Shown: positions 37,472 through 64,000 of the stretch, piece by piece | Position numbering within the stretch: the first letter of the stretch is position 1 | How the letters are laid out: each line of letters starts with the position of its first letter | Translations under genes and position numbers: made by a program | Notes under the pieces: model-generated | Database searches by the model: none | The model's input: the letters and a program-made list of their open reading frames with translations, nothing else | What the model was told of the DNA's origin: nothing | NCBI GenBank assembly: GCA_965285935.1 | Contig: OZ260662.1 | Span: forward strand, 121,272,001-121,336,000 | Direction of reading: 5' to 3' | DNA from: Ophelia neglecta | Lineage: Eukaryota | Length of the DNA stretch: 64,000 nt

Positions 37472-37730
37472 TGTTGTGGAGGCACGGCAACTGACTATTT
37501 CCCAGGCGCTCAACCTGCATGTGCATTATCCGAAGACCACTGGCGCCCCTAGCGACCGGATCGGATCCAGGGACTGGGACCAGGTCACCAGCGGGACAAA
37601 CAGTCGATCTCGAGAAGTCAATGCAGTAAGTCGCACAAGCGGTTAAATTAGTCTATATCTTGTATCCTTGTATAAATTGTGATAAATCTACGCAGAATTA
37701 GCCTGTGAACCCAAGGCCAGATCCTCGACA
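37472..37730 (+). repeat. 5' LTR (259 bp)
   Basis: TGTTGTGGAGG...CCTCGACA. I count 4 substitutions versus the 3' LTR. Confidence 0.97.
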
Positions 37731-37731
37731 T

Positions 37732-37742
37732 TGGTGTTGTGA
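37732..37742 (+). promoter_or_regulatory. Primer binding site (possibly tRNA-His)
   Basis: TGGTGTTGTGA lies 1 nt after the LTR. It matches the tRNA-His-type PBS TGGTGCCGTGA if two G:U pairs are allowed. Confidence 0.55.
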
Positions 37743-38564
37743 ATTACAGGTACGTTGTGTGGATTTTTCTACAGTTTTCATTGTTGTTCTGTCAAACTTG
37801 CGTATGGCAATGGCCTTTAATTTTTGACAGAAATTACGATCCCTTTGTGTGCAGGCTGATGTGTGTTTATTGTCATCCTTTAGGCTGACGTTATTGAAGG
37901 CATGCCAATCAGCTATCAAATGCTATTATTTCACCACTGTTAACCTATGGACATTGATACTCTGTACTATTGTGCAATAATTATTGGTGCCGCCATTTCC
38001 TTTGATCTTGTTCGGTACCACCATCTTGCTTCTTCAAAATTTGGCGGGAAAATTTCTTTGTTGGGATCCAGTTGTGGGCTTCTAGTGTTTAACAACAACC
38101 ATCAAGTTCAATTAATTCCCATATCTATCATTCTTTGCATAATTATCTATAGACTGATAACTAAATCGGAGATTGACAATTCTTGGCAATGTTATGAACT
38201 TTGATGGGGACTAACACATTCAGTAATGGTTCAATAACATTCTTTATTTTCTGATTGAATAATTATTACAATATTGGGAACACAACTGTGAATTGTATGT
38301 CATTGATTGTTAAGTTTCATTGATTACAGTACATGAAATTTACAATTCATTGATTATACATTTTTACATATTTATTAAGTACTTCATACGCACCAACATT
38401 GTCGATCTCTGATCTTGATAATGTAGTATGACATCATACTGAGAAATTACAACCATAATGAAATTAATTTAAATTCGTGTGTGTAATAAAAGGTTCTACT
38501 GTATTGTCTTTAGATAAGTGCTAAATTGTCTGGATACATAACGTTGGTATTGAACTTGTCAATC

Positions 38565-41170
38565 ATGGCACATGCAAACAAAATTGATGTGAATGATGTC
38601 ACAATTGACGAGTTACAGAATTTTTCTGGCATTGGTCCTGCAACTGCCCTTGCTCTAACTGAAGGTAGGGACAAGGCTCGAATAATGGATATCGAACTTG
38701 GTGCTTTCATTAGGCCCCAATTTTATGCATTAGTCAGGGAGAATGGTCTCGTTGGGGACGGGTATGTATCGGATGAACCAGAAAATAACCTTCCTGCCAA
38801 ACCACCTCCTGGATTCCCTAAAGAAGAGAAACCGGTCGGTGGGGATTCTCAAAATTCTGCCATTAACTACCAACCTAGTGAGGAATTTCATAATTTGCGT
38901 TTGGAAATGACAGATATTTTACATAGGCAGAATAATATGATTCATTCTAATACAAATGAAATCCAAAAGATTTCGCAAAGCTTAGACAAGCAACAGGATG
39001 AATTTGCAAAAATGAAATTATGTTTCAAGAAGCAAGAACAAAACTTTTTAGATATAAAAGGTTTGATTGAGTCAGTGAACAAACCTAGGGGTGCTTCGAC
39101 CAGCCAAAATAGTACCCCAAGCAGATCAATTGCCTTGGTTAGAACTAAAGGGTCAAGGAGTCTGCCAGAAACTCCAAATATTCCACCTAATAGTTTAGAT
39201 TCTTGTCACCAAACTAGATACTCTCCCCAAGATGTTAGGCAAGATGCCCGTTTTATACTAACTAAACCGTTAAGGGCAATCCCAAAGACTTTAACCTCGG
39301 GTGCAAATATGGGGGGCACTAGCAGACCTTCTGACGGCTCGAGAATACCTATAAGCCACTTTCCAGGAGTGTATGCTATGCCACCATCATCCCAACTAAG
39401 CAAGCCCTACCCCTGCAGTCACAGTGTACCCGAATATCATACCAAGGAGTATGGTGGGTCGGAAGAGGTACAGCATAGCGTAAAGTATGATTACCCCCAG
39501 ATCAGGTTTAAACCAACTAGCAGTCTCCCCACCCATCATACAAATTCACACAGTATGATAAAACAGGCCCATGATCCTAAATTCACTCCAAGACCCATGT
39601 CTCTTGATGGTGCTCGCAGGCCTACCTCTGATGGGACAAGACATGAGGGTCAAAATCATACCCAGTCGTATGGTATTCGTGGGCCCACAGAAGCCAGTCA
39701 TAATGCATGTTATGAAAATGAGAGTGGGGCCCCCAGGGGTGGTGCTGACCCCTTCGGGAGGGGTGGTGATGGTCGGGCGTTTGCTTGTGGCGTGCAAGCA
39801 CCAACAAACCAAGGTTTTGCGTATGGCAATGGTGTTGGCGTCGTGTCAAGCTCACCACCGTTTGCACACACTACTACAAACAGCATGGTGGATCCCCCCA
39901 GGATTGTCCGTCCTAACAGGTATGACTTTTCACAGCCCCCGCCCGAGGCCATCGGTCTGGGCATGCCGGGGCCCGTGCCAGGGCCACCCCATACCACGGA
40001 GTGTGATGTGTCTGTTCCCCCACGGGCGGACAGGAAGGTTTTTCATGCCCTGGAGTATGGTAAACCAACAAGGGACATTGGCTCAGCTAACCAAAGCATG
40101 GGAAGCTCGAGTAACTCATTAATTACTAATAGTATGGGCAATACTCATGATACCCCCGACCCCTCACAGGTACTGGTAAACACCCTGGTACAGGCTTTAG
40201 AAAGGACTAGGAATCCTAATCCCCCACCAACGCAAGGGCGTGGTCGTCCCCATTTAGGAAGCCTCCCTACCTTTGGCGGTGGTGGAGTCAAATGGCCAGC
40301 TTTTTTCTTACAATTTGATAGAATGGTTTCTAGGCTAGGACTCACTACAGAAGAAAAGTTAGATGCACTAATTGGTACTTTGAAAGACAAAGCTCTAACA
40401 TATTATTCAAAATTGTCCCCAAACACTCAAAATAATTACACGGAACTGGTTGAGAAACTACGGTTCAGGTTTGGCCCTGAAGAAACAGCTTCCGTGTCAA
40501 GACGCATGTTAAAGAGTGCTAAACAAGCATTAGATGAGAGTTTAGTGGAGTTTGCTGAACGTGTGCAATGGCTGGCAGCAGATGGCAACCCACAGGCCAA
40601 TGAAGAGTGCCTCAATGCGATAGTCATTGACACCTTTTTAGAGGGTTGTTACGAAAAAACAGCTGCACTAAACGCAATGAACGCTGAGCCTAGCACACTT
40701 GCTGAAGCTATGCGTTTGATTCAAGTTTGTAAAACTAACCAACAACACTTGAAAATTAGGACAGTAAGAGTCGCCGAAGACGATGGTGAAATGAATGTAA
40801 GGGCCATCAAGGCGACAAACAGTGGTTCAAAGAACTCTGTAGAAACAGATAGACTTAATGTACTGGAGAACAAAGTTAATGTCTTAGAAAAGCACCAAGT
40901 TGGCATAAAAGAGAGCTTGCTTCAGCTCACAGAACTAGTAAAAGGCATGAGAATGGACCTAATTAGTAAAGATACCCCCAAAAAGAATTTATCCTTTAAT
41001 ACTACCCCCACCCCACCCCCACCCCAAACAGTCCAAACAGGAGACCCAATAGGAGGTCCCCAGGTAGTGGTAGTCCGCTGTTGTGTTTCCGCTGTAAAGA
41101 GGCGGGCCACTTCCAACGGGATTGTCCTCTAAATGCGGAAAACACTTCCCCAGGCTACTCAAAAAACTAG
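38565..41170 (+). CDS. gag: Gag: N-terminal HhH motif, coiled coil, long low-complexity region, capsid domain, CCHC knuckle; one frameshift at ~41000-41025
   Basis: ATG 38565 (ATCATGG). Capsid-like LPTF..G..W..F..QF...KL..L...L...A..YY...FG region. The knuckle CFRCKEAGHFQRDC (41084-41125) is in a shifted frame ending SKN* (TAG 41168-41170). Confidence 0.9.
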
Positions 41171-41221
41171 AGATGACTGGTACATGTGACCAAATACCAG
41201 TCTGTTGTCAAAATGGTCACA
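41161..41221 (+). promoter_or_regulatory. -1 programmed ribosomal frameshift signal (slippery heptamer plus H-type pseudoknot)
   Basis: A AAA AAC at 41161-41167, then a 7-nt spacer. Stem1 GACTGGTA 41175-41182 / TACCAGTC 41195-41202. Stem2 TGTGACCA 41185-41192 / TGGTCACA 41214-41221. Confidence 0.85.
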
Positions 41222-41418
41222 CTTTTCATGGACCGAATTCAAGGTATTCAAGCATGCCTGAAAGTAAAGGGGAAAAACAAATAAGTGAACACAGTAGTAT
41301 ATGGGGGGTTGGAAAATGCAGTGCTCAGAAGGACAGCAAAATTGTACATTTATATGAGGAGCCATCTGACAGTATAGTCAAGCATCTTAGCCATGATGGT
41401 AAAAAGTTGGCTTATACT

Positions 41419-42140
41419 GATAACAACCTAGCAGGATTTGGGTACTATTTGACTGAAGGTGGCGAAATAAGAGACATTGAAACAAACAAAAAATTTCAAT
41501 TTGAAGTCTCAGAAGATAATTCCTACAATCTAAAAAGGTATGAGCAAATTGGAAACATACTCACAGAATATGTGTATGACAAATTGGTGTCTCAATGCCA
41601 CCTGCAGAAAATGTATCTCGGTTCTGTAACAAAACAAAACGAGACAAATGGCTTTGTTTTTGTGAGTGAGGATGCATTTACCAACCCTGATAAATTGCTA
41701 TTGATCATACCCGGTGCTGGCATGGTAAAGGCAGGACAGTGGTCTAGAAGGGTTATGAAAAATGACAGTCTGGAAAAGGGCTCTCCAGTGCCTTATATCA
41801 ATAAAGCCATTGAATCAGGTTATGGTGTGGTTGTCCTCAACCCAAATCATAACACATTTATAGTTGATGGGACGCAAATGAATATAAAGGGTAGTGAGGA
41901 TCCCATTAGTCATGTACTGTCTGTCTGGGACCAAATTGTCTCAAAAACACTTGCCAAGCACATAGCTATAGTTGCCCATAGTTATGGCGGGGTTATCACT
42001 ACAATTCTGGCCAATACGGCAAAGGATTTTTTGAATAGGGTGTTTGCCATTGCCTTTACAGATTCAGTTCACAATTTGTCTCATCAAATTATCAAACAAA
42101 TGCTGTAAACTGGGTAAAGAGTGACAAGCCACTGGACACG
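41419..42140 (+). CDS. FAM172A/ARB2-family alpha/beta-hydrolase-fold domain in the Pol frame (C-terminally truncated, one frameshift at ~42095)
   Basis: Motifs collinear with FAM172A (ARB2A): LAGFGYY..GEIRDI, KRYEQIG.ILTEYVY, FVSEDAFTNPDKLLLII.G.G.V.AGQW.RR, PYI.KA...GYGVVVLNPN, VWD, VAHSYGG (41971-41991), AFTDSVHN. After the shift comes NAVNWVKSDKPLDT (42099-42140). No introns. Confidence 0.92.
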
Positions 42141-42143
42141 CTT

Positions 42144-52356: not shown

Positions 52357-54450
52357 ATAATTCACGGCCCATCAGTTTCGGTAAACTTCCGGTAACTTCG
52401 CATCACCCCGTGCTGGGTCGTTCGCAGTGTTTATTTCATCGATAAACTCGTGTATCGTTGATCGACAACCGCTGTACTAAACTAACTTGAGTAAGGTAAA
52501 TCTTATCCTAACCTGATTTGTAATTGGTAATTAATACTGTTTTTTTTTATAGCAACGAGATAAACTAAAATGCCGTTGCACATGTACTTGTGTAGCCGGT
52601 AGCCTGTCATTTGCTGTGGGCGAGGTGGGGGCTGGGGAGTTGTCATTTACTGGGGGGGGGGGGGGGGGTATCCTTGGGGATGGGAGGGAGAGTCAAAATA
52701 TTGTGACACTGTCAGATGGGGGTGGAGAGAGTTCTAAGGTTGAATTTAGCCCATAGGAGAGGATTGGGGTTGTAAATTAATCAGTGTGGTCTCTGATAGG
52801 GGTTGTCACAGAATTGGCACCGTATCTGACAGGGGAATCGCAACATTAACTCTGAAAGCACAGCATGGATTGTGCCCCCCCCCCCCCCCCCGTAGTAGAC
52901 AACCCCCCCCCCCCTTATGGGCTAACAACACCCTTGGGGTGGAAACTAAGCACAATCACATTGGTAATGGTATACTGAAACGTGCCCCTTACATGGATGG
53001 GTTATCCAGAGCCGGGACCTACAAGCATATTACATTGTGGGGTCCATTTTTGGCAAACCTTATTTGGAAAGCAGGGTTGGTGCCAGGGTTGTATCAGCTA
53101 GCTTACTTGTAAGCAACAGGGTTTGAAATTTTGCTTAAACGGGGAAAATTCCGAGTACAGGGTCTTCAATTTGTATATTGTAGTAGATCGATTTTCTGTA
53201 TCTCAATAGATGTAGCCGAATTTCTGTCCGGTAAGAAAATAATTGAACTGGGTGACGAACAATGGGGGCCGGAAACTCAAATCTGCTAACGTTGGAGGCG
53301 AGATTTGTATGACGTGATCATGTGACTCAGCACATCTTGTACAAAATGGCCGACCGTAAAACAAACTTGTGAACGAGAATAAATTGCTAGTGGCCTACAA
53401 ATTCTTGGCTATTATCATGAATTTTTGCCAGTCACTAAAACGTCCGCTAAAAGCAGTGCGTACGTTAAAGCATCAGCGGTCCACTTTTTGCGTACAAATT
53501 ATGACAAATTGCGTAAATACGGCGTCAGCGCGAACCCTGGAAAGGTATGTTTTTTTATGAATTTGATATATTTGGTAAAACTAAATGTGTTTCTTTATTG
53601 CTTTCAGGTTTTTTATTCACATGTATTGGTACCTATTTGTTAGGTTTGTTTAAATGAGTCGAATTGTAAAGGCACCTTCCCCCCACCTCAGACTAGCTGC
53701 CTTTGAAAGAACCATGGTGAATTCTCAGTGTCCAGATTAGCACAGGTGCTTGGAGCTGTCCACAGTGATAATTTGTACCAATTATTTTATGTACCATTCA
53801 GTCTTGGGTAATTCTAAATTCTTGATTTTGGGCCATGTTTACCATAAATATAAGTATGGCAGATTTAATGAAAAATGAGGCAGTCACAATGGTCACACAA
53901 TATGCAAGTTTTCGCATACAGACATATCAAATGAAGTATGTCATTTGAATGTGAGATTAAATTAACATCGTTTTTTTGTGACATTAAGAAATGTCTTATA
54001 CTTAAGAGTCCTTGACTGAATGTTAAAAGGTGACACAATTAATTATAAGGACAAAACATCAAACGATCTTGAAATCAAAGGATGCCCCTTGTTCCGGGGC
54101 CCAATGATACAGGTGGGCTGGTGGGCCTTTACCTGTAAATACATATTGTGTTCAACATAGATGGCTTTTTAAAGCCTGGTTTAAAGCATGAAAGCACTTG
54201 TCAGTAATTAACATATATCTGATCAAGTAAAAAGCAATGCACCTATAGTTATTTCTAAGACTGGCTACTTGTTGGGTTTTTATTTTTGATATACAGTGCT
54301 GTCTTTAATCAGGCCAAATAACATATTGTCTTTGAAAATCTGATTTTATATCTATTTTGTTTTACTAAAAAAGGCAATTTTATTATCTTTGTATGTGTTA
54401 AATAACCCTGACATTTATTTAGACTAGCTGCAGTCTAGTTATTTTAATTA

Positions 54451-55090
54451 ATCCACTACCTGTAATGCTGTTATCTACCACCTGTACCCACCTGTAATCC
54501 ACTGTTATCCACTACCTGTAATGCTGTTATCTACCCCCTGTACCCACCTGTAATCAACTGCTATCCACTACCTGTAATGCTGTTATCTACCACCTGTACC
54601 CACCTGTAATCCACTGCTGTCCACTACCTGTAATGTTGTTATCTACCACCTGTACCCACCTGTAATCCACTGCTATCCACTACTTGTAATGCTGTTATCT
54701 ACCACCTGTACCCACCTGTAATCCACTGCTATCCACTACCTGTAATGCTGTTATCTACCACCTGTACCCACCTGTAATCCACTGCTATCCACTACCTGTA
54801 ATGCTGTTATCTACCACCTGTACCCACCTGTAATCCACTGCTGTCCACTACCTGTAATGCTGTATTCTACCACCTGTACCCACCTGTAATCCACTGCTAT
54901 CCACTACTTGTAATGAAGTTATCTACCACCTGTACCCACCTGTAATCCACTGCTATCCACTACCTCTAATGCTTTTATCTACCACCTGTACCCACCTGTA
55001 ATCCACTGCTATCCACTACCTGTAATGCTGTTTTCTACCACCTGTAGTCCTGTACCCACCTGTAATCCACTGCTATCCACTACCTGTAAT
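54451..55090. repeat. 56-bp tandem repeat, ~11 copies
   Basis: Unit ATCCACTACCTGTAATGCTGTTATCTACCACCTGTACCCACCTGTAATCCACTGCT. Confidence 0.95.
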
Positions 55091-55317
55091 CAGGGATGAA
55101 AAGATTGGCCACAGAGTGGAACTTTATCCCATTTCCACTTTACAGTGCTGCCACCTGGCCCTGTAAATGATGGCAAGTGTTTATGAAGGCCACAGAAATC
55201 TACATGATATTGTAAGCATGGAATTTTGGTGTTTTTTTTCACATATATTGGATAATAGTAGGTAAAATTCATGACTATTTGGCTGTTTGACAGAAAACAT
55301 GTTATTTTTCCTTGCAG

Positions 55318-62800: not shown

Positions 62801-63187
62801 CTGCAAAGAGATCCAATCATTAGAAATACATGGTCTTAAGCAATGACTTGCATTAAGATATTTAAAGAAGGAAGGCCAGGTGATTTCAAAAAAGGTGTCA
62901 TTTTTTGTTTCATGTTGCTATTGTTTTCTGTTCAAATAATATATTTATGAAAATGTGTATGGTGACTCGTATAATATATAAATATTTCTGAATCTCAATC
63001 TATGAGCCCTTGAGCTATCACAACCTTTTTGTACTTTCCCATTCTTTTAATTGGAGATAAACACCACCAAGGAATAATAGAAGTAAACAAAGGAGAGTCT
63101 GTTGTAGATGGAACGGTAATAGATTGAATCAAGTTATGATGTCCTATTTAGTCATTTACAAGATACTGTCAATAAAGTGATGTATTA

Positions 63188-64000
63188 ATCCAAAAGAGAA
63201 CCCCACAGTACAGAGCATCCAAAAGAGAACCCCACAGTACAGAGAATCCAAAAGAGAACCCCACAGTACAGAGAATCCAAAAGAGAACCCCACAGTACAG
63301 AGAATCCAAAAGAGAACCCCACAGTACAGAGAATCCAAAAGAGAACCCCACAGGACAGAGAATCCAAAAGAGAACCCCACAGTACAGAGAATCCAAATTA
63401 GAACCCCACAGTACTGAGAATCCAAAAGAGAACCCCACAGTACTGAGAATCCAAAAGAGAACCCCACAGTACAGAGAATCCAAAAGAGAACCCCACAGTA
63501 CAGAGCATCCAAAAGAGAACCCCACAGTACTGAGCATCCAAAAGAGAACCCCACAGTACTGAGCATCCAAAAGAGAACCCCACAGTACTGAGAATTCAAA
63601 AGAGAACCCCACAGTACAGAGCATCCAAAAGAGAACCCCACAGTACAGAGAATCCAAAAGAGAACCCCACAGTACAGAGAATCCAAAAGAGAACCCCACA
63701 GTACAGAGCATCCAAAAGAGAACCCCACAGTACTGAGCATCCAAAAGAGAACCCCACAGTACTGAGCATCCAAAAGAGAACCCCACAGTACTGAGAATTC
63801 AAAAGAGAACCCCACAGTACAGAGCATCCAAAAGAGAACCCCACAGTACAGAGACTCCAAAAGAGAACCCCACAGTACAGAGAATCCAAAAGAGAACAGT
63901 ACAGAGAATCCAAAAGAGAACCCCACAGTACAGAGAATCCAAAAGAGAACCCCACAGTACTGAGAATCCAAAAGAGAACCCCACAGTACTGAGAATCCAA
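63188..64000. repeat. 29-bp tandem satellite, ~28 copies, running off the window end
   Basis: Unit ATCCAAAAGAGAACCCCACAGTAC(A/T)GAG(A/C). Confidence 0.97.

Follow-up and report, generated by a model that had tools for sequence, protein, structure and literature searches.

Signals for -1 frameshifting that combine a slippery heptamer with a pseudoknot at the gag/pol border are described for PEG10 and for animal LTR retrotransposons, and in the survey cited pol lies in the -1 frame in 28 of 51 animal elements, with A_AAA_AAC among the most shift-prone sites (PMC5009743). An accessory domain can open the -1 frame and immediately precede the protease, as in the frameshift-made betaretroviral NC-dUTPase, MMTV p30 (PMC4531489). 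Captured domains are also described for the giant Gypsy elements Burro and GYPSM1, in Burro between Gag and protease (PMC6431247), and for rotifer LTR elements, which have captured a GDSL esterase or a DEDDy exonuclease (PMC5408684), while macro domains have been noted in fish endogenous retroviruses (PMC4977317). The Ty3/Gypsy family described here resembles the first of these systems in having a heptamer and a predicted pseudoknot at its gag/pol border, and MMTV in having an accessory domain, ARB2/FAM172A, at the opening of its -1 frame, directly before the protease. We interpret the locus as a conserved gag-pol junction with a likely -1 frameshift, at which the frame of one subfamily starts with an ARB2 domain likely derived from the host, so that unbroken copies would make Gag-ARB2-PR-RT-RH-IN while the copy analysed first is broken. 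For the frameshift, and for the slot between it and the protease that ARB2 fills, this reading has a probability of about 0.8.

The window, which is the whole 64-kb stretch of DNA analysed, contains a Ty3/Gypsy element with two LTRs and with GTAC at both flanks, a likely 4-bp target-site duplication (Table 1). The original prediction had described a heptamer, a spacer of 7 nt and two 8-bp stems that interleave, with loops of 2, 2 and 11 nt, and every one of these parts is present as described, in an H-type arrangement. Searching the whole + strand of the window gave one 8+8 H-type arrangement, the cassette itself, and the single 8+8 match on the - strand was taken as the mirror image of the + strand cassette. 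An 8+6 pseudoknot stood 3' of one of the 520 slippery heptamers in the window (245 on the + strand and 275 on the - strand), again the cassette, and an 8+8 pseudoknot did not arise in any of 200,000 base shuffles of the 47-nt sequence. The site has the canonical features of -1 frameshifting, with an in-frame X XXY YYZ heptamer 5' of the 0-frame stop, a spacer within 5-9 nt and a conserved 3' structure. An Rfam scan of the cassette returned chance matches only and no family. Three DNA-type runs of one sample span the cassette and list no change in its stems; no RNA datasets with the sequence were listed in our search.

Table 1. Features of the Ty3/Gypsy element and its frameshift cassette in the window
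Feature	Position	Strand	Remarks
5' LTR (TG...CA)	37472..37730	+	4 mismatches in 259 vs 3' LTR
Primer-binding-site region	37731..37745	+	10 nt shorter vs L020
gag ORF from first ATG	38565..41132	+	Retrotrans_gag E 8.7e-7; exits zinc-knuckle frame near 41008
14 extra bases in C-rich tract vs L020	41008..41021	+	breaks gag frame
CCHC zinc knuckle	41084..41125	+	zf-CCHC E 4.7e-7; 0 frame of slippery site
Slippery heptamer A AAA AAC (AAAAAAC)	41161-41167	+	before zinc-knuckle-frame stop
7-nt spacer	41168-41174	+	contains 0-frame stop TAG 41168-70
Stem 1	41175-82 paired with 41195-202	+	perfect 8-bp Watson-Crick
Stem 2	41185-92 paired with 41214-21	+	perfect 8-bp Watson-Crick in window
Variable linker, -1 frame	41222..41418	+	dN/dS 0.57-0.78 on 44 codons
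ARB2/FAM172A domain, -1 frame	41419..42108	+	PF22749 E 2.2e-44; C-terminal part including His gone
Short deletions (11 nt and 14 nt, at 42080-89), then junction	42080..42158	+	~720 nt missing vs L020: ARB2 end and protease
pol remnant (RT, RNase H, integrase)	42158..45745	+	TAA at 42552 and 42999; frame break near 44540
Third ORF, 440 codons	46025..47347	+	before 3' LTR
3' LTR	47834..48092	+	

The heptamer had been placed directly before the gag stop. The TAG found there does end the zinc-knuckle frame, but the long gag ORF of the window (38514-41132) runs in another frame and ends at a TAA (41130-32), 30 nt 5' of the slip site. Since gag is out of frame after 41008, the Gag of the window copy would end before the slip site is reached, and the cassette, which had been called intact, is so in sequence only. 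The 14-nt change at 41008 could be an assembly error, as it is bridged by none of the listed contigs or runs; the other lesions are enough, as far as the sequence tells, to make the window copy a dead one. Its ARB2 retains the Ser (41980) and the Asp (42061), and the break in pol near 44540 amounts to one base fewer than in locus L020. The third ORF carries a Cys/His motif, and other copies have an ORF in the corresponding position; it matched no Pfam family, and its Atlas matches were all under 0.9. At the N-terminus of Gag (window 38574-38675), a weak helix-hairpin-helix match was seen below cut-off (HHH_3, E 0.0012). Outside the element, the window holds 262-nt inverted repeats, 98% complementary and 1589 nt apart (50244-52356), which likely belong to a DNA transposon, and tandem arrays whose periods are 56 nt (54339-55178) and 29 nt (63043-63980).

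A genome search with a pattern of heptamer and stem 1 matched 29 places, and its control matched 2. This lineage accounts for 25 of the 29, and the remaining 4 seem unrelated. Among a first set of 17 cassettes (15 distinct), stem 1 was nearly invariant (7 of 8 pairs). A second set comprised 20 loci chosen among 119 protease matches, 19 of them without an ARB2 match and one with an ARB2 fragment. A zinc knuckle was recognisable in 17 of these 20 sister loci, and in 15 of the 17 the protease is encoded in the -1 frame with respect to it. All 14 representative elements align without gaps and all share the 7-nt spacer, with AAAAAAC, CCCAAAC or TTTAAAC as heptamer; GGGAAAC occurs in a further family with a slightly different geometry. 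Across these 14 elements, 92.9% of stem 1 cells are paired and five of the eight pairs have changed on both sides. The covariation of stem 1 was 0.50, against 0.28 when shuffled and at most 0.18 when slid, although the compared copies are related and shuffle controls therefore overstate significance. The covariation that had been proposed as a check among family copies was thus found, with two-sided changes in both stems, and the geometry is conserved, stem 2 being weak in some families. What did not survive is the idea that the cassette serves ARB2 specifically, which is ruled out by the same cassette in sister families that have no ARB2. As the signal is conserved in letters-changing form across the clade, ARB2-less families included, it is likely the usual -1 frameshift signal at the gag-pol junction of a Ty3/Gypsy clade. 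A degraded A-like copy (L035, G000:C1:143.33 Mb) was also seen, with a damaged stem 1 and no ARB2 between cassette and protease.

A protein search with ARB2 returned 33 matches, among which we count 18 element loci, one multi-exon host gene and some unassigned fragments. The domain is carried by subfamilies A/A', B and C, with 41-49% protein identity between groups and saturated synonymous sites. Locus L020 encodes a Gag of 868 aa followed by a single -1 frame of 1794 aa in the order ARB2-PR-RT-RH-IN; it has the PR-RT-RH-IN domain order of Ty3/Gypsy, from which the window copy lacks PR. An open -1 frame into pol that is reached from gag is present in L020 and in sister families and absent in the window copy, and the ARB2 frame lacks a conserved start codon. 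The arrangement of L020 supports a Gag-ARB2-Pol product for the family. The original prediction that the ORF at 41122-42108 is not independent but made as Gag-ARB2-Pol can therefore be kept for the family, given the L020 frame, the lack of a conserved ARB2 start and the conserved -1 geometry. It has to be given up for the window copy, from which such a fusion is excluded by the loss of the gag frame, the truncated ARB2, the deleted protease and the broken pol. In unbroken copies, translation would mostly end at the TAG and yield Gag, and a minority of ribosomes would slip by -1 at the heptamer and pseudoknot to yield Gag-ARB2-Pol. The fusion, presumably made at Pol level, would enter particles via Gag, and the protease could then free nucleocapsid-ARB2 or ARB2 alone inside the particle, comparable to the betaretroviral NC-dUTPase. 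A young non-autonomous family of ~5 kb was observed as well (L065-L070 and L072-L075, 10 loci), with an open gag and the frameshift cassette and without the ARB2 core and pol. Its LTR pairs are 98.7-100% alike in the seven loci with both LTRs found, and the -1 frame is open for about 340 aa in most copies.

Little is understood of FAM172A/ARB2A, a nuclear protein that has been tied to AGO2 and to CHARGE syndrome. The element domain falls into the Arb2/FAM172A family by a Pfam PF22749 match above cut-off and by its predicted fold, the predicted structure (pLDDT 89) matching Clr3 and Hda1 and then alpha/beta hydrolases. It is intronless, whereas the host FAM172A gene is split into nine exons or more, a contrast consistent with capture from mRNA, and the transcript of this gene is the likely source of ARB2. 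Among the sequences compared, the element ARB2 is closest to the host gene (53% identity to its exons). Trees of 20 rows group the element ARB2s with the host gene and Capitella (97/98; 82/98); in a quick tree of 41 rows they are placed apart from the host gene. The grouping gives the host an annelid-like look. Between subfamilies A and A', the dN/dS of ARB2 was 0.32 (0.18-0.55) and 0.28 (0.16-0.49), with intervals that exclude 1, a constraint similar to that on the protease (0.31-0.37) and weaker than that on RT. Ser196, Asp223 and His276 follow one another in this sequence order and are invariant in 18 of 18 aligned proteins, four of them element-borne, that were hand-picked among the top matches. 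A copy of subfamily C has Gly at the position of the ARB2 Ser (Ser lost in L027). A recent one-off insertion of ARB2 was considered and rejected.

Beyond this family, a full HMMER search found retroelement domains in one of 157 examined ARB2 proteins. This protein, P0120, is a single record from one ENA contig of 8179 bases and consists of a distant Gypsy Pol (25-29% identical), PR-RT-RH-IN, ending in an Arb2 domain that follows the integrase and keeps the Ser, Asp and His. Its Arb2 is possibly a second capture at another position; a test of P0120 as a separate capture in the ARB2 tree gave an AU p of 0.28, and no relatives of like length were found for it. Word-indexed searches returned no ARB2-Pol fusions elsewhere, viral contigs yielded no ARB2-retroelement case, and on metagenome contigs gag or pol lay near ARB2 in none of 80 kept loci (138 found).

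The slot between frameshift and protease differs in content by lineage, holding ARB2, a macrodomain or spacer alone, and measures 35-380 aa among sister loci. The ARB2 trees unite the domains of A, B and C in a single clade (98/97; 90/93), whereas a single clade is rejected for their Pol proteins (AU p 2.7e-10): A has the ARB2-less L156 as its sister, and B and C group with the ARB2-less L071 and L169. Either one gain followed by several losses or an exchange of the module could have produced this slot history. A Macro domain (PF01661) was detected in one of nine slots scanned (L165, E 9.6e-36; G000:C7:109900541-109901026) and is missing, with the frame kept, from L163, which is 99% identical to L165; a Macro domain in this slot is also recorded for L176 and L177. 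Two degraded loci carry a diverged macrodomain immediately 5' of a like protease, and a putative host macrodomain gene matches at 40-68% per exon. Many ARB2-less sister elements have long open pol frames, so that ARB2 appears dispensable for the clade. In L167 (1884-3017), the slot is occupied by about ten in-frame tandem copies of a ~24-residue repeat. At G000:C1:136.2-139.7 Mb, macrodomain matches in long open frames cluster densely (more than 30 of them) and may represent a host gene family that has expanded.

Low abundance, the kept triad residues and a hydrolase in a sister slot make an accessory enzyme the first guess for the function of ARB2, and we propose tentatively, with weak commitment, that it may be an optional particle-borne serine hydrolase. 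Our literature search found no paper linking FAM172A to a serine hydrolase, and the pocket of the Hda1 ARB2 is described as disrupted (PMC5036196). This guess stands only level with chromatin or Argonaute binding and just ahead of a passenger role, and all are close rivals. The first of these alternatives, which we hold just as tentatively, takes ARB2 for a counter-silencing or chromatin module that, particle-borne or Gag-fused, would bind Argonaute/PIWI, histones or host FAM172A and either blunt silencing or guide the integration complex. The Arb2 of P0120 speaks for such a role by its place after the integrase, where targeting domains are usually located, but the ARB2 of the present family precedes the protease, far from the integrase. 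Mouse FAM172A homodimerises and binds AGO2 directly (PMC10205598), and the Hda1 ARB2 dimer binds H2A-H2B and H3-H4 (PMC5036196). However, the vertebrate loop that splits ARB2, in which PMC10205598 places the NLS and the AGO2-binding E229, is missing from both the element and the host gene, and a Pol-level output would be low for a decoy, retroviral Gag being about 20-fold more abundant (PMC4531489).

Somewhat more doubtful is the view that ARB2 is a tolerated passenger, in which the slot would take almost any in-frame sequence and the domain would be constrained only to fold harmlessly in the polyprotein. The wide range of slot lengths, tandem repeats included, is consistent with it, and so are the in-frame losses of the macrodomain (L163 vs L165) and of the ARB2 core (non-autonomous family) and an ARB2 dN/dS of 0.92 between the window copy and L020, a value based on few changes and a dead copy. 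Against it stand the retention of ARB2 in three lineages that have diverged to saturation at synonymous sites with the motif residues in place, and the A vs A' dN/dS intervals given above. Broader, and rather unlikely, is the idea of the slot as an exchangeable cargo bay that would load captured host enzymes into particles against host defence, with ARB2/FAM172A moved as a module, a MacroD-type ADP-ribose hydrolase as another load, and ARB2 taken up again, after the integrase, by a distant Gypsy. If this were true, the second ARB2 uptake would suggest that FAM172A has an unrecognised part in transposon control.

The frameshift signal itself can be read in other ways. It is improbable that the stimulator is a single nested hairpin, an extended stem 1, to which stem 2 would be incidental. 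Folding of the window sequence with a program for nested structures only, pseudoknots being outside its model, recovers stem 1 at an ordinary energy (z 0.23). Extended hairpins fold well in subfamilies C and D (z -2.9 and -3.4), and stem 2, 4-9 bp long across families, measures just 4-5 bp in some of them. By shuffling, stem 2 reached p <0.05 in 9 of 15 cases and had p >0.05 in the other 6, and in most ARB2-lineage copies its two outer pairs do not form, leaving a conserved core of 5-6 bp. The hairpin account is opposed by the two-sided changes of stem 2, seen in three of eight pairs in the first set (85.8% paired), and by its 3' arm, which still pairs although loop 3 ranges from 10 to 17 nt. 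Separate translation of ARB2 from the ATG at 41173 or from its own mRNA, with the structure acting in stop readthrough, reinitiation or packaging, is very improbable. The in-frame ATG, four codons after the slip site in A and A', speaks for it, but this ATG is missing in B, C and D, readthrough past the TAG of the window would run into a TGA two codons on, and the heptamer type and 7-nt spacer are preserved while letters change.

A conserved -1 frameshift junction with ARB2 as its cargo thus remains our preferred reading, in which the signal is conserved and of a known type and the cargo unusual and probably undescribed. Our search found no paper on ARB2/FAM172A in retrotransposons; Repbase and Dfam notes, subscription papers and supplements lay outside it and may record the domain, and the available text of the review on giant Gypsy elements has 0 occurrences of ARB2 and FAM172 (PMC6431247). 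The signal offers a natural series of compensatory variants, and the retention under selection of an ARB2 with hydrolase-like residues hints at an activity and at a connection with transposon control. A slot with ARB2, macrodomain or spacer in near relatives provides a compact model for accessory-gene gain by retroelements. Compared with host FAM172A/ARB2A, Hda1 and Clr3, the element version shares the Pfam Arb2 domain and the fold but is intronless, lies within a polyprotein and is without the vertebrate NLS loop. Compared with signals of the PEG10 type as described (PMC5009743), the sequence differs, Rfam gives no match and a host domain follows 3' of the signal. The captured enzymes of rotifer elements are separate ORF3s, unlike here (PMC5408684), and Burro has its captured domains between Gag and protease (PMC6431247). 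The cargo of MMTV p30 is a dUTPase of proven activity, in a retrovirus that has its own pro frame (PMC4531489), whereas here an ARB2 or macrodomain sits in the Gag-Pol of a retrotransposon and varies among sister elements.
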